DNA from: Eubacteriales bacterium
Lineage (GTDB): Bacteria > Bacillota > Clostridia > Lachnospirales > Lachnospiraceae
NCBI GenBank assembly: GCA_030527715.1
Contig: JAUNAF010000003.1
Coordinates: 1,641-65,640, forward strand
Length of the DNA: 64,000 nt
Direction of reading: 5' to 3'
The position numbers and the translations under genes are program-made. Below the pieces are notes generated by a model. The model saw only the letters and a list, made by a program, of their open reading frames with translations, searched no databases and had not been told where the DNA came from. Below, piece by piece: positions 5,048-56,812 of this stretch (within the stretch, counting starts at the first letter, position 1; each line of letters opens with the position of its first letter).

Positions 5048-6730
5048 ATGTATCAGGAAGAGTATAAGCGCTGGCTTGCAGCAGATTTAGAGGACGCAGA
5101 TCTGAATCCGGAGCTGGCACGCATCGAGGGGAACGATGAGGAGATCAAGGACCGTTTTGCAGTAGCATTAAAGTTTGGTACTGCAGGACTTCGCGGAGTT
5201 CTCGGAGCAGGCACAAACCGTATGAATATCTATGTGGTTCGTCAGGCAACTCAGGGTCTTGCAAACTGGGTAAAGACACAGGGCGGTAATCAGACCGTTG
5301 CGATCAGCTATGACAGCCGACTGAAGAGTGATATTTTTGCAAAGACTGCAGCAGGAGTTCTTGCAGCAAACGGAATCAATGTTCGCATCTACGATGCACT
5401 GATGCCGGTACCGGCGCTGTCCTTTGCAACCCGTTACTACGAGTGCAACGCAGGTATCATGGTAACTGCTTCTCACAACCCGGCAAAGTACAATGGTTAT
5501 AAGGCTTACGGTCCGGACGGCTGCCAGATGACAGATGATGCAGCTGCCATCGTTTATGCTGAGATCCAGAAGACCGATGTTTTAAACGGAGCAAAATACA
5601 TTTCCTTCGCAGAGGGCGTGGAAAAAGGACTGATCCGTTTTGTAGGCGATGACTGTAAGAGAGCACTCTATGATGCGATCGAGTCCCGTCAGGTTCGTCC
5701 GGGTCTGTGCAAGACCGCTGGATTAAAGCTGGTTTACAGCCCGCTGAACGGTTCCGGTCTGGTACCGGTAACTCAGATCCTGAAGGAGATCGGTATTACA
5801 GATATCACGATCGTACCGGAGCAGGAGTATCCGAACGGCTACTTCACCACCTGCAGCTATCCGAACCCGGAGATCTTTGCTGCACTTGAGGCAGGACTGA
5901 AGCTCGCAGAGGAGACCGGAGCAGATCTGATGCTTGCAACAGATCCGGATGCAGACCGTGTCGGTATCGCAATGAAGTGCCCGGACGGCACCTATGAGCT
6001 GGTAAGCGGAAACGAAGTAGGCGCACTGCTTCTGGACTACATCGCAGCCGGCAGAATTGAAAAGGGAACCATGCCGAAAAACCCGGTAGCAGTAAAATCC
6101 ATCGTATCTACACCGCTTGCAGATGCAGTAGCAGAGCATTACGGAGTAGAGATGAGAAACGTACTGACCGGCTTCAAGTGGATCGGTGATCAGATCGCAC
6201 AGCTGGAGGCAGACGGAGAAGTAGACCGCTTCATCTTCGGATTCGAGGAGAGCTATGGTTACCTTGCTGGACCGTATGTACGTGACAAGGATGCGATCAT
6301 CGGATCCATGCTGATCTGTGAGATGGCTGCATACTATCGCAGCATCGGAAGCTCTCTGAAGCAGAGAATGGAAGAGATCTATGCAGAGTACGGCCGTTAC
6401 CTGAACAAGGTAGACAGCTTTGAATTCCCGGGTCTGACAGGTATGGACAAGATGGCAGGCATCATGCAGAATCTTCGTACCAACCCGCCGACAGAGTTCG
6501 CAGGCTACAAGATCGTCGGAGCAGCAGATTACACGAAGCCGGAGGAGACCGGACTTCCTGCAGCAAACGTACTGATCTACAAGCTGGAAGGCGGCGCAAC
6601 CGTGATCGTTCGTCCGTCCGGAACAGAGCCGAAGATCAAGGCTTACTATACAACACTGGGCAAGGATCTTGCAGAGGCGCAGGCACAGAAAGATGCACTG
6701 GCTGCAGCACTTGCACCGATCTTTGCATAA
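5048..6730 (+). CDS. Phosphoglucomutase/phosphomannomutase (alpha-D-phosphohexomutase family)
   Basis: 560 aa with the phosphoserine loop TASHNPAKYNGYK, metal loop ATDPDADR and sugar loop GFEESYGY. Confidence 0.92.
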   Translation: MYQEEYKRWLAADLEDADLNPELARIEGNDEEIKDRFAVALKFGTAGLRGVLGAGTNRMNIYVVRQATQGLANWVKTQGGNQTVAISYDSRLKSDIFAKTAAGVLAANGINVRIYDALMPVPALSFATRYYECNAGIMVTASHNPAKYNGYKAYGPDGCQMTDDAAAIVYAEIQKTDVLNGAKYISFAEGVEKGLIRFVGDDCKRALYDAIESRQVRPGLCKTAGLKLVYSPLNGSGLVPVTQILKEIGITDITIVPEQEYPNGYFTTCSYPNPEIFAALEAGLKLAEETGADLMLATDPDADRVGIAMKCPDGTYELVSGNEVGALLLDYIAAGRIEKGTMPKNPVAVKSIVSTPLADAVAEHYGVEMRNVLTGFKWIGDQIAQLEADGEVDRFIFGFEESYGYLAGPYVRDKDAIIGSMLICEMAAYYRSIGSSLKQRMEEIYAEYGRYLNKVDSFEFPGLTGMDKMAGIMQNLRTNPPTEFAGYKIVGAADYTKPEETGLPAANVLIYKLEGGATVIVRPSGTEPKIKAYYTTLGKDLAEAQAQKDALAAALAPIFA

Positions 6731-6863
6731 CAATAGGATGCACGCTCCGCGAACATTCTATTGGCATGAACTCTGAGAAACACGCTTTGCGAGTTCCTCA
6801 AGTTGTCGCGGTGATCCTCGAATGCCTGTGCAAGCACAGCATTCGCATCGCTATTCGCGCAAA
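6731..6863 (-). repeat. Most complete copy of the interspersed intergenic repeat (box2, 67 nt, 33-nt hairpin when read on the - strand)
   Basis: The hairpin CAATAGGATG..CATTCTATTG (6731-6763) matches 21171-21203 at 31/33 after reverse complementing. Box2 (6831-6863) matches 3703-3735 and 21204-21222. Confidence 0.6.
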
Positions 6864-11915: not shown

Positions 11916-12009
11916 GACGATCCGGAAATCCTTTTTGAGTTTTCAAAACAGTTGAAGAAACCTCCTCAGAAATGGTATAATGGAACTACCATTTCGGGGA
12001 GGTTTTGTT

Positions 12010-13452
12010 ATGGAAAGCAGAGTGAAAAAATATCGGATCCGGCTGTTGTCCCTCCTGCTGATGCTGCTGATCATTGGCAGCAGTTCCTTTCAGGTTCTGG
12101 CAGCACCGGGGCTTAATGCAGCGGTGACAAAAGAGAATATTCTGGCGATCCTGGATACGTATGACAAAGATGGTGCGTATCTGGTACGGAATTCCGGAAG
12201 TCCAAATCCGGTGACAGAGTGGTGGGGTGCCAAAGACCGTCTGATCGATAAGATGGATACTGTGGTGCACGAATCCTTTCACTACTACACTTACTATAAA
12301 CATGATAAAGCAGATGCCTTTTACATCGGCAGTCAGCGCACGTCCCTGATCTATCAGACACCGGTGTTTCGAAGCAGTCTGATGGCTGCAAAGATACCTG
12401 CCTCGATGCGGACCTTCCGCTATGACACCTATCTTGGCGAGGGAAGTGCAAAGATGGCATCGAATGCTCAGGGAATTTACGGTCTGTTCAATGAGTTTAC
12501 CGCTTACTACTGGGGAATGCACACAGCTCTGGCACTCTATGATTATTATGAAAAGGTAGATGATCAGGATATCTATGTCTGGCAGCGCTATGTGACAAAC
12601 TGTACCAACGATATGATGGCCTATGAGGAGTTTCAGTATTACATGCTGCAGTATCTGCAGTATGCAAAGAAAAATTATCCAAAGGTCTACCAGAGTATTT
12701 TGCTGAATAAGGAATTTATGAGTACCTGGCAGCTGATCAACCGGGCGTATCGCGCACAGATCGAAGAATACACCGCAAGTCTCCCGAAAATTGTGGAGAA
12801 TATTTCCAGACAGGGATACCATGCACTGTATGAGGACGGTATGCTCTATATTAACGAAAAAGGTGCGGGAGTTCAAAAAACGACCTTTCAGGGAGCGGGA
12901 GTTCTGTACAGAGAACTGAGTACGGGCAAATATACTTCGCTGGAGAAGGAGCTTGGCATCACAGCAGGTCTGAAAGATATCGGCACGAATGTCAGCAGAA
13001 TGGCAAAGATCAAGGTAAAGATGGGAGGAGAACTCCACTATTTTGAACTCAGCTCGAATGGGAAGAATCTTGCCTATGCCGGACCGGTGAACAGACTGTC
13101 CAAAATGACGAGTCTGACGATTCCAAAAGCCATTGAGATCAGCGGCAGAAAATACAAGGTGACAGAGATTGCTGCAGGTGCCTGCGAGAAAATGAAAAAA
13201 CTGAAACTTCTGTTCCTGCCGGATACGATCACTGAGATTGGTGAAAAGGCATTTTCCGGCTGCACACGTCTCAGAAAGATCGAGATCGTTTCAAAAAAGC
13301 TGAAAAAGAAAAAAATCGGAAAGAATGCATTTGCAGGTATTGGCAAGAATGCCGTGATCTTCGTGCCGAAGAACAAAGTAAAAAATTACCGCAGTCTTAT
13401 GACAGCCAGAGGGCTGCACAGAAAGGCAAAGGTCAGAGCGATTGTACATTGA
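12010..13452 (+). CDS. Secreted protein with an N-terminal HExxH-containing domain and a C-terminal BspA-type leucine-rich repeat domain
   Basis: Start at the ATG at 12010, after GGGGAGG. Signal peptide ..SSFQVLAAPG. HESFH codons lie at 12268-12282. The C-terminus TSLTIPKAIEISGRKYKVTEIAAGACEKMKKLKLLFLPDTITEIGEKAFSGCTRLRKIEI is typical of LRR_5/BspA repeats. Confidence 0.6.
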   Translation: MESRVKKYRIRLLSLLLMLLIIGSSSFQVLAAPGLNAAVTKENILAILDTYDKDGAYLVRNSGSPNPVTEWWGAKDRLIDKMDTVVHESFHYYTYYKHDKADAFYIGSQRTSLIYQTPVFRSSLMAAKIPASMRTFRYDTYLGEGSAKMASNAQGIYGLFNEFTAYYWGMHTALALYDYYEKVDDQDIYVWQRYVTNCTNDMMAYEEFQYYMLQYLQYAKKNYPKVYQSILLNKEFMSTWQLINRAYRAQIEEYTASLPKIVENISRQGYHALYEDGMLYINEKGAGVQKTTFQGAGVLYRELSTGKYTSLEKELGITAGLKDIGTNVSRMAKIKVKMGGELHYFELSSNGKNLAYAGPVNRLSKMTSLTIPKAIEISGRKYKVTEIAAGACEKMKKLKLLFLPDTITEIGEKAFSGCTRLRKIEIVSKKLKKKKIGKNAFAGIGKNAVIFVPKNKVKNYRSLMTARGLHRKAKVRAIVH

Positions 13453-13534
13453 GATCGTAACTACAAGAAGGTCCAGAAGAAATCCGAAAAAGGTATTTCG
13501 AAGATATGCCTCTGTTCGTCAGGAAGGAGAGCGT

Positions 13535-14074
13535 ATGTACCGGATCCAGGCGGAAGATCGGCAGCTTCGCCGTATTCGCCGGATCTGCAGAAGAAAACAT
13601 TATGAGATCCGCCGCACTTATCCGGAGCATCTGGGAAGAAGCGACAGCTACAGAAGAGATTTTCTGAAAGCGAATCCCAGACCTCTCAGAGGATACCGCT
13701 GCCGTTACTGCCACCGCCATCTGTCTGAGCGGCAGATGACGGTGGATCATATTTATCCGGTGTATCTGGCGAAGACCGGAAAGGGACTCTGGATGATGCA
13801 CCTGGCGATGATCTTTGACGTCAACGATGTGAGAAATCTTGCCCCGGCATGTGCGAGATGCAATGCGAAAAAGGGCAGAAAGGCCGGACTCTGGGTCATG
13901 CGGGGGATCCTCGGAAAGTACCGTCTCTACTGGGTCCTGCTGCGAACGATACAGCTGCTGGCAGTCTCACTGATCCTGTATCTGGGATATCGCATATATC
14001 CATATCTGAAGCATAATAGTATTATTTCCGGCATCGTTGGATGGGTCGGAAAAATTCTGGAGGAGAGAATATGA
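13535..14074 (+). CDS. HNH endonuclease-domain protein with a C-terminal transmembrane segment
   Basis: Start at the ATG at 13535, after AGGAAGGAG. HNH core CRYCHRHL..TVDHIYP..VRNLAPACARCNAKKG. Hydrophobic tail YWVLLRTIQLLAVSLILYLGY. Arg-rich N-terminus. Confidence 0.7.
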   Translation: MYRIQAEDRQLRRIRRICRRKHYEIRRTYPEHLGRSDSYRRDFLKANPRPLRGYRCRYCHRHLSERQMTVDHIYPVYLAKTGKGLWMMHLAMIFDVNDVRNLAPACARCNAKKGRKAGLWVMRGILGKYRLYWVLLRTIQLLAVSLILYLGYRIYPYLKHNSIISGIVGWVGKILEERI

Positions 14075-14643
14075 AAAAGCGCAGACCACTGATTTTCCTG
14101 AATTCCCCGGTAATTCTTCTGTTTACCGGCATCTGTCTGCTGGCACTGCTTGCCAGTAATCTGACCGGGGGCAGAAGCAATGACCTTCTGTTTTCGGTTT
14201 ACCGTTCCTCGCTGGCCAGCCCGTTTACCTACCTTCGGTTTATCGGTCATGTCTTCGGTCACGTCAGCAGAGAGCATTTTATGGGAAATATCATGATGAT
14301 CCTTGTGATCGGACCGCTGCTGGAGGAAAAATACGGTTCCGCAAATATCGCGATCGTGATCCTTGTCACAGCTCTGATCACCGGCATCATTCAGTTTGTC
14401 TTCTTCCCGGGGGTGCAGCTGATGGGAGCGAGCGGAGTGGTGTTCGCCTTTATCCTGCTGTCCTCCTTTACAAGCTTTCGGGACGGCAGCATACCGCTGA
14501 CCTTCCTGCTTGTTGCCTGCATTTACCTGGGTGAGGAGATTTATGACGGAATCTTCCTCAGGGACAATGTGTCCAATCTGACCCATATCGTCGGCGGACT
14601 GATCGGAGCAGCCTTAGGATATCTTATGAATAAAAAGAATTGA
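14071..14643 (+). CDS. Rhomboid-family intramembrane serine protease
   Basis: 190-aa polytopic protein with GASGVVFAF (the GxSG catalytic Ser) and HIVGGLIGAALGY (catalytic His helix). ATGA start/stop overlap with the HNH gene. Confidence 0.8.
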   Translation: MKKRRPLIFLNSPVILLFTGICLLALLASNLTGGRSNDLLFSVYRSSLASPFTYLRFIGHVFGHVSREHFMGNIMMILVIGPLLEEKYGSANIAIVILVTALITGIIQFVFFPGVQLMGASGVVFAFILLSSFTSFRDGSIPLTFLLVACIYLGEEIYDGIFLRDNVSNLTHIVGGLIGAALGYLMNKKN

Positions 14644-14668
14644 ATGTAGAAAGTGAAGGACAGGAGTC

Positions 14669-16939
14669 ATGTGGAAGCATCAGAATATCGGAAGTCTGGA
14701 TGACTTTTTTCTAAAATTAAAACAGAGAGCAGTGCCCGGTGTCTATTTCTACCGGGTCGCTGTCTATTCAGAGCAGATAGATCAGTGGATCCGAAGATAC
14801 TATGAGGCCGCACGGACCAGAGGCGTCGTGATCGAGGGACGGATCCCGAATCCGGACGAGAAAAATCTCTCCTACTACTATGAGATGATGGGGGAGGAGT
14901 TTCTCATGAACGCAGGCTTTTTTCAGGAACGCCTGAAAAAATGGCTGCCGAGACTGCGGACAGACAAGCGAGCGGAGATGGCGGGAGCGATCTATGATTC
15001 TCTGGATGCACTGCGCCGTCAGGGCAAAAATGAAAACATGCTGAAAAATGCCTACATCAAATATATGTGCTGGCTGTACTATCGCTTTGAGCGGGTGGTG
15101 AATCTGCTCGGCGAGGAGGATCTGCCGAAGATCCTGTATGAAGGGGAGGTCAGCAATTATGAACTGCTGCTTCTCGGTGTTTTATCCAGCGTCGGCTGCG
15201 ATATCGTACTTCTGGAGTATCAGGGAGATGCCGCCTATCAGAAGCTTGATCCGCAGGAAAGATTTTCGACGGCACTGCAGATGGCAGGTACCTCCGGATT
15301 CCCGGCAGGGTATTCTCTGAAAAAGGTGCGGGAAGAGCAGCAGAAAGCACAGCAGCTGGCACAGCTGATCCCGCAGACAACACAGGTCAATGCGACAAAT
15401 ACCTGGATCACAGGCAAAGGGTTTGAGGATGTGCTGAAGGAAGGCTACGCGAGAGGAAAGGACGAGCGGTTCTTTTACAACTGCTTCTGCCGGATCCGCG
15501 GAGTGGAGGACCGTCTGACCTATACCAATGAGCTGCTCAGATATTATGAGGAGCTGAAAGGCAGCGGAAGAAAGATACAGATTTTTGAACATGAGATCCC
15601 CGCACCGACACCGGAGGAGATCTCAGGGATCCGCCGCGGAAATTATCAGAACAGAGAACAGATGCTGATGGATCTGAGCAGAAATCTGCAGAAGATCACA
15701 GATGCGGAGGTGCGGGGACTGGCTGTGAAGGCTCTGATGGAGCTGCTGCTTGCGCTTCCGAAGGAGGAAAATCTGAACCGCCTGACCGGAAAAGCAGTCT
15801 ATCTGATCTGCTGGCTGCTGCGCTACCATACACGGCTGTTTGCGGATCGCAGGGACCGCCATGAGCTTGCCTGTGTGCTGTACCTGGGCGGCTGCAGAAC
15901 AGAAAACGAAGCACTGTTCCTTCGCATGCTTGCGAGAATGCCGAGTGATGTGCTGATCCTGGTTCCGAATCGAAATGAGACCTGCCTGGTGGAGGACAAG
16001 CTGCTCTACGAAAAGAACTATGAGGAATCTCTGGTAGTCAAGTCCTTTCCGCGCGGCGGAAGAAGTGTTCAGGTCGGCACCGCTGCCTACCATGCGGAAC
16101 GTGATCTGGATCAGCTGCTCTATCAGGGGACCGGAATGTATCGCAGCATGCAGTTTCAGAGAGCAGATGCACTGACGCTTCGGACGATGTATGAGGAGAT
16201 CCCGCTGCTCTGGGATCAGGAGGTCAAGTACCGTCCCGGCTTTTCCACAACAGATCAGCTGGTACATATTCCGGTGATCTATGCAAAGATCTCGGGAGTG
16301 AAGGATGGAGCACTGGATGCCTACTGGCGCTCAATCAAAGGGCTTCTGACTGAGGATACGCATCTGATACAGGAGGGAAGGCTGCTGGATCTGTCACGCC
16401 CGAATCCGATGAAGCAGTATGCGGTAGAATTTTATAAAAACGGAAAGCTGCAGAGAAAGCATATAAAGGAGCATCCGAAATTCCCCTACAGTGTGCTGCG
16501 TGAGGAGACACAGGAATGCATGCTCGATGCGCTTGAGCGCGTGCTGAATGCAAAGATGATCCGCGGCATCGGTGAAAACGGTATGGAGTACACCGTGATC
16601 GCGACAGCGCTGAATCTGCCGAAGGAGATCATCCGTCAGATCCAGAAATTTGACTTTACGAAGAAGAACCCGAAGCTGATCAGTATTCACACGACAGAGA
16701 AGCCGATGGCGCTGGAGGATGCGATCGCGATCGCGCTCCTGCAGCAGATCGGATATGATATTCTCTTCTTTGTTCCTACCGGTTATCAGACGGCGGAACA
16801 TTATTTTCAGAACAGCCCGATGGAGGAGCACCAGATCGGAGAATACCTTTATGATCTCAGAACCCCGGACTTTTCACTGGTCTCGGCGGAGGATACCGCA
16901 AAGGGGCTGATCGGCAAGCTGTTTGGGCGAAAACGCTAG
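14669..16939 (+). CDS. Large uncharacterised cytoplasmic protein, possibly YceG-like (Ter-cluster-associated family)
   Basis: 756-aa ORF with good codon usage and an RBS (GGACAGGAG). No Walker A or other catalytic motif was recognised. The family assignment rests only on position upstream of two TerD genes, as with yceG in the B. subtilis yceCDEFGH cluster. Confidence 0.45.
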   Translation: MWKHQNIGSLDDFFLKLKQRAVPGVYFYRVAVYSEQIDQWIRRYYEAARTRGVVIEGRIPNPDEKNLSYYYEMMGEEFLMNAGFFQERLKKWLPRLRTDKRAEMAGAIYDSLDALRRQGKNENMLKNAYIKYMCWLYYRFERVVNLLGEEDLPKILYEGEVSNYELLLLGVLSSVGCDIVLLEYQGDAAYQKLDPQERFSTALQMAGTSGFPAGYSLKKVREEQQKAQQLAQLIPQTTQVNATNTWITGKGFEDVLKEGYARGKDERFFYNCFCRIRGVEDRLTYTNELLRYYEELKGSGRKIQIFEHEIPAPTPEEISGIRRGNYQNREQMLMDLSRNLQKITDAEVRGLAVKALMELLLALPKEENLNRLTGKAVYLICWLLRYHTRLFADRRDRHELACVLYLGGCRTENEALFLRMLARMPSDVLILVPNRNETCLVEDKLLYEKNYEESLVVKSFPRGGRSVQVGTAAYHAERDLDQLLYQGTGMYRSMQFQRADALTLRTMYEEIPLLWDQEVKYRPGFSTTDQLVHIPVIYAKISGVKDGALDAYWRSIKGLLTEDTHLIQEGRLLDLSRPNPMKQYAVEFYKNGKLQRKHIKEHPKFPYSVLREETQECMLDALERVLNAKMIRGIGENGMEYTVIATALNLPKEIIRQIQKFDFTKKNPKLISIHTTEKPMALEDAIAIALLQQIGYDILFFVPTGYQTAEHYFQNSPMEEHQIGEYLYDLRTPDFSLVSAEDTAKGLIGKLFGRKR

Positions 16940-16955
16940 GAAACTCGCACCAGAC

Positions 16956-16984
16956 TTGAAGGTTTTTGGGAATAGTGGTATAGT
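16956..16984 (+). promoter_or_regulatory. Candidate promoter for the terD-terD-ATPase unit
   Basis: TTGAAG (16956-16961), 17 nt spacer, TATAGT (16979-16984), preceded by TG (extended -10). Confidence 0.45.
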
Positions 16985-17106
16985 ACAGTAAAGTTCTGTA
17001 TGGACTTTATCTCAGTCGAGAAGACTTCCATCTCTGGAGGTGACAAGTCTCGTAAACTCGACTTGAAGAAATAGAAATCAATTATCAAATAAGGAGGGGA
17101 AGATAT

Positions 17107-17688
17107 ATGCCTATCAATCTTACCAAAGGACAGAAAGTGGATCTTACCAAAGGAAATCCGAGTCTGAAGAACATTCTGGTCGGACTTGGCTGGGATGTCA
17201 ACGCATTTGATTCTGGCGCAGACTTTGACCTGGATGCATCTGCATTCCTCTGCGGAGCAACCGGAAAGTGTCCGACAGAGAAGGAATTTGTCTTCTACGG
17301 CAATCTGGAGCACACCAGCGGTGCAGTGAAGCATATGGGCGATAACCTGACCGGTGCAGGAGAGGGTGATGATGAGGAGATCCAGATCGACCTGACAAAG
17401 ATCCCGGAGAATATCGAGAAGATCGCATTTACAGTTACGATCTACGATGCAGAGGGACGCCGTCAGAACTTCGGACAGGTCTCCAATGCCTATATCCGTA
17501 TCGTGGATGAGTCTACCGGAACGGAGCTGATCCGCTATGATCTCGGTGAGGACTTCTCTATTGAGACAGCAGTGGTAGTAGGTGAGCTCTACAAGCACAA
17601 CGGCAACTGGAAATTCAATGCGATCGGAAGCGGCTTCCAGGGCGGTCTTGCAGCACTCTGCGGACACTATGGAATTCAGGTTGCGTAG
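17107..17688 (+). CDS. TerD-family stress protein
   Basis: 193 aa with [20 protein letters not shown] and the Ca2+-site motif [15 protein letters not shown]. Confidence 0.93.
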
Positions 17689-17841
17689 CACAGGACACCA
17701 CCAAGTATGAAAAGCCCGTCCAATGTCTGAGCATCTGATCGAGTAAACTCGACATCTGCTCAGCCGCTGTCCGGGATTTTCACAGCAAAATTGTGTCCGG
17801 GGGATGACACAGCGATCATAAAGAAAGAGGGGGAAACGCAT

Positions 17842-18438
17842 ATGTCAGTTAGCTTAACAAAGGGACAGAAGGTCAGCCTTACAAAAGAAAATGCAGGTCT
17901 TACCGGCGTCATGGTAGGTCTTGGCTGGGATGAGGTACAGCCGGAGAGAAGAGGCTTTGGATTATTTTCCAGAAAGCCGCAGGATATCGACTGCGATGCC
18001 TCTGCAATCCTTCTGAAGAACGGCAAGTTTGTGGACAAGTCTGACCTGGTTTATTTCGGAAATTTAAGACACAAGAGCAATGCAGTCATTCATCAGGGAG
18101 ACAACCTGACAGGAGCCGGCGAGGGCGATGATGAGCAGATCATGATCGATCTCTCCAGAATACCTGCAGATTATGACCGTATCGTGCTGGTAGTAAATAT
18201 CTACAGTGCAGTCAGCAGAGGACAGCATTTCGGAATGATCAGAAATGCCTTCATCCGTCTTGTGGATATGAGAAATAACAAAGAAATGTTCAAGTACAAT
18301 CTGACCGAGGATTATTCCGGAATGACAGCGATGATCTTCGGTGAGGTTTACCGTCACAACGGCGAGTGGAAATTCAGCGCGATCGGACAGGGAACCGCCG
18401 ATCCGGGCTTAAGTGAACTGGTGCGCAGATATTCCTAG
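17842..18438 (+). CDS. TerD-family stress protein (second paralogue)
   Basis: Start at the ATG at 17842, after GAGGGGG. MSVSLTKGQKVSLTK..GLGWD and [15 protein letters not shown]. Confidence 0.92.
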   Translation: MSVSLTKGQKVSLTKENAGLTGVMVGLGWDEVQPERRGFGLFSRKPQDIDCDASAILLKNGKFVDKSDLVYFGNLRHKSNAVIHQGDNLTGAGEGDDEQIMIDLSRIPADYDRIVLVVNIYSAVSRGQHFGMIRNAFIRLVDMRNNKEMFKYNLTEDYSGMTAMIFGEVYRHNGEWKFSAIGQGTADPGLSELVRRYS

Positions 18439-18478
18439 GAATGACGGAAAATATTAGCAGAAAGGGATTTATAACGTA

Positions 18479-21109
18479 ATGGAAAAGATGAATAAGGACA
18501 GTCTTCAGAAGGGACTGTCCGATTCTCAGGTAGAACAGAGTAAACGCGAACACGGCTGCAATGAGCTGGCAAAGAAGGAGAGAGAGTCGATCCTTGCCAT
18601 GTTCCTGGATGCCTTCAATGATATCTGGATCAAGGTCCTCTGCGCAGCACTGCTGCTGAAGATCGTGCTCGGTGTGATCGGTATCTTCGTACCGGCGATC
18701 GCAGGAGAGAATGATTTCATTGAGATCATCAGTATTCTTCTGGCGATCGGTTTAGCAACCGGTTTCAGCACACTTTCCGAGTATCGAAATTCTTCCAGAA
18801 GTGAGGCACTTCAGGAAGAGTACAGCAAGACCTTCGCAAAGGTCGTGCGCAACGGCAAGCTGATCAACATTCTGACCAGTGAGATCGTGCTTGGCGACAC
18901 CATTCTGGTGCAGGCCGGTGATAAGGTTCCGGTCGACGGACTGATCTTCGAGGGCAATATCAAGGTATCTCAGGCTGCCTTAAACGGTGAGTCCAGAGAT
19001 GAGAACAAGGCAGCCACGGACTCCATGGAGGAAGCCGAGAGTACAGACTATGCTTCTGAGAGCAAAGTATTCATGGGTTCTGTCGTGACCAGCGGAGAGG
19101 CTTATATGGTTGCCACTGTGATCGGTGATGCGACAGAGCTTGGTAAGATCAACAAGGCTCTGACCGATGACAGCGAGGAGGAGCGTAAGGATACCTCCAG
19201 TCTGAAGCTTGAGGTCGTAGCTGCGGGTATCGGTAAGCTCGGTGTCTCCGCGGCAGCGATTGCAGGTGTACTGCATGTACTGCTCTCTGTGATGCGTGCA
19301 AATGAGGCTGTTACCATAGTCTATGTGCTTCTGCTGATCGCTGAGGCAGTTATGCTGATGGCTTCCATCGTCATCATGGCGGTTCCGGAGGGTCTGCCGA
19401 TGATGAACAGCCTGGTACAGTCCATGAACACAGAGTCCATGTACAAGAAGAATATTCTTGTCAGCCACAAGGCAGCATTTTCGGACTCTGCATACATGAA
19501 TGTTCTGTTCAGCGATAAGACCGGTACGATCACCGAGGGTAACCTCTCTCTGGTAGAGTTCATTCTTGGAAGCGGCGTGATCGCAGAGCAGATCCAGGAC
19601 GAGGAATTTATCGAGTCCATCACTCTGAATAACCTGGCAAAGGTTTCTGAAGGCAAGGCGATCGGAAGCAACAACATGGACCGTGCGCTTCTGACCTACG
19701 CACTGAACCATGGCTATGATCCGGAGAAGAGAGCTGAGGAGAAGATCAAAGAACTCAGCGGCTTCGATTCTGAGAAAAAATGTGCAACCGTGGAGCTGAA
19801 GGACGGAACCGTGTACTGGAAGGGTGCTACGGAGAATATCCTCGGTGAGGTGACACACTATGTATCCGCAGACGGCACCATCGCAGCATTCACCGCTGAG
19901 GATCGTGCAAATGTGGAGACAAAGATGCATGAGCAGGCAGCCCGTACCATGAAGCTGCTTTCTGTAGCAAAGAAGACCAAGGATCAGACGATCCTGCAGG
20001 CAGTGCTCTGTCTGCGTGACAATGTCCGCCGCGATGCTGTTGAGACTGTTGAGATCCTCAACAGAGCAGGTATCCAGGTAGTCATGGTTACCGGTGATGC
20101 GGAGGAGACCGCAGTCGCTATCGCAAGCGAGGCAGGCATCCTTCGTCCGAACACAAATGATCTGGTTCTGACCCATGAGCAGCTGGAGGCACTCTCCGAT
20201 GAGGAGCTGAAGAAAAAGCTTCCGGATCTGCGCGTAGTCAGCAGAGCAAAGCCGCTTGATAAAAAGCGTCTGGTATCCCTGTCACAGCAGCTGGATAATG
20301 TCTGTGGTATGACCGGTGACGGTGTCAATGATGCGCCGGCTCTGAAGCAGGCAGATATCGGATTTGCAATGGGCGACGGTACCGCCGTAGCTCAGGAGGC
20401 CGGTGATGTAGTCATCCTGAACAACAGTCTGACCTCGATCAAGGACTGCGTGCTGAACAGCCGTACGATGGCGAAGTCCGTCGGAAAGTTCCTGATCTTC
20501 CAGCTGACCGTAAATATTGCAACTCTGATCATGAACATTATCGCACCGATCCTTGGATGGACCGAGCCGTTCTCCATCGTTCAGATCCTCTGGATCAACC
20601 TGATCATGGATACTCTGGCAGCAATGGCCTTCGGCGGAGAGCCGATCCTGGATCGTTACATGAATGCTCAGCCGGCAAAGAGAACCGACAGCATCCTGTC
20701 CGGATATATCAAGTCCGCGATCGCTGTCAGCGCAGTGTTTATCACGCTCGGTTCTATCCTGATCCTTGAGAACATCGGCGGTATCGCAGATTTCGTAACA
20801 CCGGCAAATGCCGCAGATCCGGAGCTGTATAAGAAGACTTTCATGTTCGCATTCTTCATCTATGCGATCATCTTCAACAGCTTTAACACCAGATCCGAGA
20901 ACTTCAATCTGCTGGAGCACATCTCCGAGAACCGCAGATTTATCTACGTTATGGGAGCGATCTTCGTTCTTCAGACCGTAATTATCGAGATCGGCGGAAG
21001 CGTATTCTCCACCACAATGCTCAGCCCGAAGGCACTGATCGTGTCTATGGTACTGGCACTGCTGATCATTCCGGTAGATATGGTTCGCAAGGCGATCGTA
21101 AACAAATAA
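18479..21109 (+). CDS. Calcium-translocating P-type ATPase (P2 type)
   Basis: 876 aa with DKTGTITEG (phosphorylation site), PEGLP in TM4, TGDGVNDAPALKQADIGFAMG, and about 10 TM segments. Confidence 0.92.
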   Translation: MEKMNKDSLQKGLSDSQVEQSKREHGCNELAKKERESILAMFLDAFNDIWIKVLCAALLLKIVLGVIGIFVPAIAGENDFIEIISILLAIGLATGFSTLSEYRNSSRSEALQEEYSKTFAKVVRNGKLINILTSEIVLGDTILVQAGDKVPVDGLIFEGNIKVSQAALNGESRDENKAATDSMEEAESTDYASESKVFMGSVVTSGEAYMVATVIGDATELGKINKALTDDSEEERKDTSSLKLEVVAAGIGKLGVSAAAIAGVLHVLLSVMRANEAVTIVYVLLLIAEAVMLMASIVIMAVPEGLPMMNSLVQSMNTESMYKKNILVSHKAAFSDSAYMNVLFSDKTGTITEGNLSLVEFILGSGVIAEQIQDEEFIESITLNNLAKVSEGKAIGSNNMDRALLTYALNHGYDPEKRAEEKIKELSGFDSEKKCATVELKDGTVYWKGATENILGEVTHYVSADGTIAAFTAEDRANVETKMHEQAARTMKLLSVAKKTKDQTILQAVLCLRDNVRRDAVETVEILNRAGIQVVMVTGDAEETAVAIASEAGILRPNTNDLVLTHEQLEALSDEELKKKLPDLRVVSRAKPLDKKRLVSLSQQLDNVCGMTGDGVNDAPALKQADIGFAMGDGTAVAQEAGDVVILNNSLTSIKDCVLNSRTMAKSVGKFLIFQLTVNIATLIMNIIAPILGWTEPFSIVQILWINLIMDTLAAMAFGGEPILDRYMNAQPAKRTDSILSGYIKSAIAVSAVFITLGSILILENIGGIADFVTPANAADPELYKKTFMFAFFIYAIIFNSFNTRSENFNLLEHISENRRFIYVMGAIFVLQTVIIEIGGSVFSTTMLSPKALIVSMVLALLIIPVDMVRKAIVNK

Positions 21110-21132
21110 TTTATAATATGATGATTACAGAA

Positions 21133-21165
21133 GGGGCTGTGAAATGATTTCACAGCCCCTGTTTT
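21133..21165 (+). terminator. Rho-independent terminator of the ATPase gene
   Basis: GGGGCTGTGAAA-tga-TTTCACAGCCCC followed by TGTTTT. Confidence 0.8.
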
Positions 21166-21170
21166 CATGG

Positions 21171-21222
21171 CAATAGAATGTTCGCGGAGCATGCATTCTA
21201 TTGTTTGCGCGAGTAGCGATGA
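21171..21222 (+). repeat. Copy of the interspersed intergenic repeat (hairpin plus start of box2)
   Basis: CAATAGAATG-ttcgcggagcatg-CATTCTATTG followed by TTTGCGCGAGTAGCGATGA. See 6731-6863 and 3703-3749. Confidence 0.6.
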
Positions 21223-36059: not shown

Positions 36060-36071
36060 GCATATTCATGA

Positions 36072-36096
36072 CAATAGAATGTTCGCAGATCGCGAA
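36072..36096 (+). repeat. Truncated copy of the repeat-family hairpin arm
   Basis: CAATAGAATGTTCGC is identical to 21171-21185, after which the sequences diverge. Confidence 0.45.
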
Positions 36097-56615: not shown

Positions 56616-56635
56616 AAGTTCCTGTGATATAATAA

Positions 56636-56812
56636 TTCGGCAACTGTTGTTTCACCTGATCAGGAAAACTGGGAAGCCGGTGCAAGTCCGGCACAGCTAC
56701 CTCTACTGTAAGCGGAGACGAGGGAACAAGAGCCACTGAAGGTATACTTTGGGAAGGCGTTCCTGAGGAAGAAACGCAAGTCAGGAGACCGACTGAGCAG
56801 GGAACATGATTT
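56636..56812 (+). promoter_or_regulatory. Cobalamin (B12) riboswitch
   Basis: Conserved core GGGAAGCCGGTGCAAGTCCGGCAC..ACTGTAAGCGG..GCCACTG..TGGGAAGGCG and B12 box AAGTCAGGAGACCGAC. Preceded by an extended -10, TGATATAAT (56625-56633). The downstream TTCCTC could pair with the RBS GAGGAG. Confidence 0.85.

Follow-up and report, generated by a model that had tools for sequence, protein, structure and literature searches.

A probable reduced derivative of the Lachnospiraceae Ter-type cluster in which two TerD genes adjoin a PMCA-like P-type ATPase

The plasmid terZABCDEF operon confers resistance to tellurite, phages and colicins. Ter systems in general have been summarized as combining signal biosynthesis, ligand binding by TerB and TerD, membrane transport by TerC, and a sub-membrane structure formed by TelA (PMC7824862), and TerC proteins are described as Mn-linked transport and metalation factors (PMC10550928). 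Here we analyzed a 64,000-nucleotide (nt) stretch of a Lachnospiraceae genome (Eubacteriales bacterium, assembly GCA_030527715.1, contig JAUNAF010000003.1, positions 1,641 to 65,640 of the forward strand), hereafter the window, whose positions are counted from its first letter. On its + strand, genes for a rhomboid protease, a YceG-family protein, two TerD proteins and a P-type ATPase (the pump) form what is, with a probability of about 0.7, a reduced derivative, rhomboid-YceG-TerDa-TerDd-pump, of a Ter-type stress-response cluster conserved in many gut Lachnospiraceae; this is the best explanation of the locus as a whole.

The nearest architecture was found in Roseburia zhanii BX1005 (L006) and Roseburia sp. 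UBA10666 (L013), where the order is rhomboid-YceG-TelA-TerDa-TerDd-pump-HAD. These clusters share with the window the rhomboid, YceG, TerDa and TerDd genes and a pump of the same lineage (type A, see below), all in the same order, and like the window they carry exactly two TerD genes and lack a YceG-trypsin gene. Identities to the window are 78-83% for the pump, 86-90% for TerDa and 71-79% for TerDd; YceG is 54-57% identical, compared with about 73% within the type-A clade. The window differs from the Roseburia-type clusters in having no TelA, HAD, PRTase_2-TRSP, StiP-PELOTA or C-C lyase gene, and an HNH gene stands upstream instead.

In the yceCDEFGH-type cluster of Bacillus, represented by B. 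thuringiensis pLUSID2, the order is TerD x3-TerC-YceG-TelA, with TerC between the TerD genes and YceG. Common to this cluster and the window are several TerD paralogues with the Ca2+ motif and a YceG-family protein. The window, however, has neither TerC nor TelA, places YceG first and the TerD genes after it, and includes a rhomboid gene; its YceG has ~250 extra N-terminal residues, and its pump is co-oriented and PMCA-like, whereas the pump beside the Bacillus cluster is convergent and SERCA-type. With the plasmid terZABCDEF operon the window shares a close relative of Klebsiella pneumoniae TerD (TerD1 matches entries 2KXT and 2KXV, E 7e-71). Unlike the plasmid operon, it has no TerC and, among the Pfam-scanned genes in and flanking the region, no TerB, TerA/TerZ/TerF or vWA; a P-type ATPase and a rhomboid protease are present, and the signal-biosynthesis layer is missing from the window. 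The pump itself shares DKTGT, TGDGVNDAPAL, the PEGLP of transmembrane segment (TM) 4, the N of TM5 and the N...D of TM6 with the PMCA-type (IIB) ATPase ACA8 of Arabidopsis (8qmp) and the bacterial single-site ATPase LMCA1 of Listeria (6zhf). It differs from PMCA-type ATPases in having no calmodulin-binding extension, in scoring slightly under the TIGR01517 cutoff, and in its apparent dedication to a Ter cluster.

The conserved cluster and its reduced form in the window

Relatives were collected from GTDB, one genome per species, with YceG as the anchor of the scan; of at least 582 hits, the 80 best loci were analyzed. The core order in these 80 Lachnospiraceae-type species was (rhomboid)-YceG-TelA-TerD x2-4-P-type ATPase-(HAD), often accompanied by a PRTase/PELOTA/ATP-grasp/C-C-lyase module for a nucleoside-like metabolite. 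In the Pfam-annotated contigs the full cluster comprised C-C_Bond_Lyase on the minus strand, YceG_bac+Trypsin, Rhomboid, YceG, TelA, three to four TerD genes, a cation ATPase, HAD, PRTase_2+TRSP, StiP+PELOTA_1 and ATPgrasp_Ter; the PRTase_2, TRSP, PELOTA_1, ATPgrasp_Ter and C-C_Bond_Lyase families were reportedly defined in the Ter analysis of Anantharaman et al. 2012 (Aravind group). TelA followed YceG in every locus (80/80), and the P-type ATPase followed the TerD run in 73 of 76. The HAD phosphatase gene came after the pump in 60/68 loci, a YceG-trypsin gene lay upstream in 51/68, and a rhomboid gene directly preceded YceG in 42/72. TerD was present in two copies in 10 loci, three in 52 and four in 14 (76 loci). 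Minimal YceG-TelA-TerD x2-pump clusters without the other modules were common and widespread (L044, L049 and L095). The last of these came from pump-anchored look-ups, all three of which fell in YceG-TelA-TerD-pump clusters.

A tblastn search with TerC of B. thuringiensis as query detected no TerC in the window or in the Lachnospiraceae-type loci L002-L085, and none lay within 10 kb of the clusters. The linkage between TerD and the pump, with 73/76 loci and all three look-ups in agreement, rests on conserved gene order and not on chance position, and it is a fair description that the pump stands, at the level of the clade, where TerC stands in Bacillus, while coexisting with TelA. An initial annotation of the window, made from its sequence alone, had proposed that a Ca2+ pump replaces both TerC and TelA; the first half of that proposal agrees with the relatives, and the second does not, as TelA coexists with the pump in 80/80 loci and was lost here. 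The more general proposal, that a Ca2+ pump serves as the membrane component of a TerD cluster, is supported and broadened, and the pump is no local novelty, being found across 80 species. In full-text paper searches we found no description of a linkage between TerD and a Ca2+ or other P-type ATPase, although it may already be mentioned in Anantharaman et al. 2012. Gut jumbo phages have been reported in which one genome holds multiple TerD genes along with a Ca2+ P-type ATPase that is highly transcribed, between which the authors drew no link; this would be an independent co-occurrence.

All six + strand open reading frames (ORFs) annotated between 13535 and 21109 are present in the window, and their family assignments make the Ter character of the cluster plain. 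The rhomboid gene (14071-14643) encodes 190 amino acids (aa) and matches Pfam Rhomboid at E 5e-20; as read from the sequence, its HxxxxHxxxN (GHVSREHFMGN), GASG and HIVGG (THIVGGLIG) motifs are intact, and it appears to be the orthologue of the rhomboid gene directly 5' of YceG in 42 of the 72 related clusters. The adjacent 756-aa ORF (14669-16939), initially called unknown, matches Pfam YceG_bac at E 1e-109 and encodes a predicted soluble protein with an internal repeat. It belongs to a classical partner family of Ter clusters and not to an unrelated one, should be labelled a YceG-family protein, and makes a composition once taken as unrecognized recognizable as Ter. The two TerD genes (TerD1, 17107-17688, and TerD2, 17839-18438; Pfam TerD E 4e-85 and 5e-76) are the apparent orthologues of TerDa and TerDd, and the acidic loop noted initially is present in both as an intact Ca2+-binding motif of the pattern GDNLTGxGxGDDE. 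Among the relatives this metal-binding motif was kept in the TerDa, TerDd and TerDb types and never in the TerDc type. The pump gene (18479-21109) encodes an 876-aa PMCA-like type-II P-type ATPase with the DKTGT, PEGLP and TGDGVNDAPAL motifs, as first described.

A tblastn search of the 64 kb with all cluster proteins recovered five orthologues only, namely rhomboid (65% identity), YceG (54%), TerDa (88%), TerDd (75%) and the pump (80%); the rhomboid, TerDa and TerDd values are those to the proteins of locus L003. By the same search, TelA, TerDb, TerDc, HAD, YceG-trypsin, C-C lyase, PRTase-TRSP and StiP-PELOTA were found nowhere in the 64 kb. Some relatives (L044, L049, L095) lack HAD and the PRTase/PELOTA/C-C-lyase module too. 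TelA (~385 aa), in contrast, fills the slot between YceG and TerD in every relative, and the window alone is without it. In the window this slot is a 167-nt spacer (16940-17106), which tblastn and blastx found to hold no TelA remnant and which is identical in sequence in an independent Logan contig (L001). Pseudogene remnants of TelA or of TerDb/TerDc were also sought by blastx and blastn in this spacer and in the 150-nt spacer between TerD1 and TerD2, and these searches came back empty. The exact six-gene order of the window occurred nowhere else in the searched collections, and the TelA-less form would be a new reduced variant of the known Ter/TelA/YceG system.

The YceG family is large (at least 3960 homologues) and abundant in Lachnospiraceae, where its members are ~758 aa long; the window protein aligned over its full length with 80 orthologues, and the Bacillus-type protein aligned to its residues 250-752 at 25% identity. 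An internal duplication is indicated by homology between residues 1-235 and 236-465 (hhalign probability 92.7%). An AlphaFold model was of moderate quality (pLDDT 75.5, pTM 0.45, with low confidence over residues 464-546), and Foldseek against the PDB gave weak matches only, to KaiC and to RecD2-like tandem alpha/beta ATPase-like domains (E >= 1.4e-3, TM-score < 0.2). No YceG relatives were found in IMG/VR, and a plasmid search returned only distant Bacillus-type YceG. Locus L085 (6585-9653) encodes a 1022-aa YceG, possibly fused to an upstream YceG-like region, which had the highest bit score to the window YceG despite 49% identity. A divergent, longer TerD-domain protein was also observed in L094 (13599-15133), on the opposite strand just past HAD and paired with an AIM24 gene, in the one Pfam-annotated case; minus-strand TerD-domain ORFs of this longer kind (250-380 aa) lay 3' of HAD in ~30 related loci, and the window has no such ORF.

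Two pump lineages in one slot and uneven divergence of the cluster

The best PDB matches of the window pump, both full-length, were ACA8 (8qmp, E 3e-97) and LMCA1 (6zhf, E 2e-85), and TIGR01517 was its best NCBIfam family. In the alignment with ACA8, the TM4 PEGLP, TM5 FQLTVN and TM6 NLIMDT segments of the pump were aligned, a pattern that we read as that of a single-site PMCA, with the TM4 E of PEGLP and the TM6 N and D as putative ligands. These matches are consistent with the initial assignment as a Ca2+ pump; the protein is PMCA-like and appears dedicated to the Ter cluster, with Ca2+ as the ion that it would transport.

A full-length pump ORF was present in 70 of the related loci, and in these two pump lineages occupied the slot after TerD: type A in 23 loci (78-83% identical to the window pump) and type B in 47. 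Both matched TIGR01517 best, type B with 556 bits, above the cutoff. The two types are only ~34% identical to each other, whereas YceG was 63.8% identical between type-A and type-B clusters and 64.4% within type B, and TerDa 86.0% between the types and 87.0% within type B. Because YceG and TerDa are as similar between the pump types as within one of them, the comparison indicates in-place replacement of the pump gene by a distant paralogue, against a background of normal divergence in the other cluster genes. Two lineages this dissimilar in the same slot argue for selection on pump function, and of the contextual evidence the displacement speaks most strongly for a Ca2+-type pump being functionally required beside TerD. 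Flanking genes showed no split that matched the pump lineages.

A third lineage was observed in the Bacillus cereus group (L091 9867-12533 and L093 8765-11428), where a SERCA/YloB-type Ca2+ P-type ATPase lies immediately after TelA and convergent to it in a TerD x3-TerC-YceG-TelA cluster that has TerC as well. The records are closely related to one another and lend the pairing weak support. ATPase matches in phage and plasmid records were at most 44% identical.

It is conceivable that the pump is a general housekeeping exporter of Ca2+ (or Mn2+) that lies beside TerD by chance, with no mechanistic coupling and no role in stress or defense. PMCA- and SERCA-type pumps are indeed common as stand-alone genes in Firmicutes and on plasmids, and nothing in the sequence demonstrates physical contact between TerD and the pump. 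Nevertheless, the adjacency outlasted the swap to a 34%-identical paralogue, every type-A pump looked at is part of a Ter cluster (23/23, plus the three pump-anchored look-ups), and the SERCA-type lineage abuts the B. cereus-group cluster, so that we consider a chance neighbor improbable.

The proteins of the window have not diverged evenly from those of the relatives. The median identity of the window YceG was 54.1%, as against 64.0 ± 2.0% for the others (z = -4.9, the lowest of 81), and the rhomboid protein was also divergent (z = -2.3), whereas TerD1 and TerD2 were typical (z of about -0.5), as was the pump (80.7% to type A, compared with 84.8% within type A). At an equal TerDa distance of ~14%, YceG identity to type-A genomes was 63.8% for type-B genomes and 54.8% for the window. 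The window YceG departs from 24 of 244 near-invariant columns, where the next highest count was 11 and the median 3; the substitutions are scattered over its length, with conservative ones numerous. These comparisons indicate that YceG, and to a lesser extent the rhomboid protein, are evolving faster in the window, and that YceG is not a pseudogene. Since the loss of TelA is accompanied by faster change in YceG and the rhomboid protein but not in the TerD proteins and pump, the cluster may be divided into two sub-modules, TerD with the pump, under unchanged constraint, and rhomboid-YceG-TelA, perturbed by TelA loss. Stand-alone YceG-TelA pairs, as in Aneurinibacillus, fit this division.

Such divergence could also mark a decaying remnant, a cluster in the course of being lost in which at least YceG and the rhomboid protein have no Ter-related function, and the loss from the window alone of an otherwise universal TelA, along with HAD and the biosynthetic module, points the same way. 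We regard decay as unlikely, however: none of the five ORFs is disrupted, YceG retains 220 of the 244 near-invariant residues, the catalytic motifs of the rhomboid protein are preserved, the TerD proteins and pump are conserved as in complete clusters, and the minimal clusters described above show that small forms are common and widespread.

The sixth gene, which encodes an HNH endonuclease-like protein (Pfam HNH 32.6 bits, cutoff 21.4), lies immediately upstream on the same strand (13442-14074). The gene is real, but its start, annotated at ATG 13535, is probably TTG 13442, giving 210 aa, because most homologues that reach this far conserve the resulting 31-residue N-terminal extension MYIEIVTTRRSRRNPKKVFRRYASVRQEGER (beginning MYIEIVTTRRSRRNPKKVFRRYASV); the gene would then share its first 11 nt with the end of the LRR_5 gene (11980-13452) upstream, stop included. 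The CxxC...DH...N...CxxC core is kept, with C56, C59, D71, H72, N101, C106, C109 and N110 invariant in the homologue alignment, and a hydrophobic C-terminal tail is common to the protein and its homologues. No HNH gene was present in the related Ter clusters (0/80), and homologues of 56-71% identity are sited after dtd (D-Tyr-tRNA deacylase) or diacylglycerol (DAG)-kinase genes with no Ter genes nearby. On account of this absence and these unrelated contexts, the HNH gene is, by all appearances, an unrelated bystander adjoining the conserved cluster, despite the ATGA at 14071-14074 in which its stop overlaps the rhomboid start, and it should not carry a Ter-associated label. A PADLOC search with the six proteins gave no defense-system match; the HNH protein weakly matched a PtuB domain (best E 1e-5), and the other five matched nothing.

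The original view that all six genes form a compact, undescribed Ca2+-coupled stress or phage-response module, with the pump in place of TerC and TelA and with the HNH and rhomboid proteins as integral effectors, can draw on the tight same-strand packing, on an ATGA overlap that suggests translational coupling, on the PtuB-type resemblance and on the recurrence of the rhomboid gene, but it is very unlikely and already largely refuted by non-conservation, given an HNH gene that is foreign to all 80 clusters, a pump that coexists with TelA everywhere else, an "unknown" that is YceG, and proteins that PADLOC assigns to no system.

Possible mechanism and points against a reduced Ter cluster

In a mechanism that would fit a reduced Ter cluster, two cytosolic TerD proteins would act as buffers or sensors for Ca2+ that enters when the envelope is damaged, and the adjacent PMCA-type pump would export that Ca2+, taking in this clade the divalent-metal transport role that TerC has in Bacillus and plasmid ter clusters. 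The rhomboid protein, YceG and TelA would form a second, membrane-proximal sub-module, here without TelA. In complete clusters, TelA, YceG and the rhomboid protein together with a nucleoside-like signal may add sensing or membrane-remodelling layers (PMC7824862), and the window would retain mainly the buffer-and-pump pair. A promoter-like site in the spacer that remains where TelA was lost may drive separate transcription of the two TerD genes and the pump gene.

We propose tentatively, with the odds somewhat against it, that TerD and a PMCA-type pump make up an obligate pair for Ca2+ sensing or buffering and extrusion, which would be the functional heart of Clostridia Ter systems with the pump as an analogue of TerC. 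If so, the window would be a natural minimal experiment in which the pair persists under normal constraint without TelA or the nucleoside-like signal, YceG and the rhomboid protein would belong to a separate, TelA-dependent sub-module, and ter-mediated resistance to tellurite, phages and colicins would become a question of divalent-cation handling after envelope damage. The TerD-pump linkage, the refilled pump slot and the absence of TerC lead to a testable hypothesis, that TerD works with a divalent-cation exporter.

Several points weigh against the reduced-derivative reading or its functional extension. Genes for TelA, HAD and the biosynthetic module could be encoded outside the 64-kb window, in another part of the genome, and adaptation, not relaxed constraint, could account for the faster divergence of YceG. 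No close relative was found by which the loss might be dated: in a protein database of ~5.8 billion clusters, identities reached at most 57% for YceG and 83% for the pump, and searches with YceG, the HNH protein or the ATPase returned no closer relatives of the window organism. The pump scored 476 bits to TIGR01517, 31 below the equivalog cutoff of 507, and, since SPCA and other related pumps carry Mn2+ as well, Ca2+ is its putative ion. As for signals, the promoter-like site in the spacer was no better than many chance matches and is not significant, no Rfam match at gathering level was found between 13 and 21 kb of the window, and the folding of the leaders was not significant (z = -1.1 and -1.5).

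Boundaries, signals and neighboring features

The spacings within the cluster are as initially reported, with 25 nt between the rhomboid and YceG genes (14644-14668) and 40 nt between TerD2 and the ATPase gene, and the ATGA overlap with the HNH gene was likewise recovered. TerD2 most plausibly starts at ATG 17839, which is preceded by a GAGGGGG ribosome-binding site. The promoter-like TTGAAG-17-TATAGT noted at the outset is present at 16956-16984 with a TG upstream and scores 9/12; sites of that grade numbered 18 in the scan, compared with 12 ± 3.2 expected, a slight enrichment.

The leaders of both TerD genes contain the exact 11-mer GTAAACTCGAC, of which there are only two copies in the 64 kb (17052-17062 and 17743-17753), 45 nt and 86 nt 5' of the respective ATG; the second falls in the loop region of a hairpin. 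As a candidate conserved operator the 11-mer was rejected, since it is missing from every related locus and its sole other match is L001, whose sequence is that of the window. The 11-mer may be an operator specific to this lineage or may have arisen through the deletions.

At the 3' end of the cluster, the strong terminator of the initial annotation corresponds to a + strand hairpin with a 13-bp stem (7 GC pairs) followed by GTTTTC, which we place at 21132-21160 and describe as terminator-like. Just 3' of it begins a ~42-nt repeat of 93% identity (21164-21205), with further copies at 6729-6770 (reverse complement) and 36065-36086, which may be a repetitive extragenic palindrome (REP)-like or terminator-associated element. 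The downstream genes are, by Pfam, a 98-aa ORF, TauE and SDF. Elsewhere in the window and unrelated to the cluster, we observed a RAGATH-18 RNA at 290-362 (61 bits) and a cobalamin riboswitch at 56627-56811 (91 bits).

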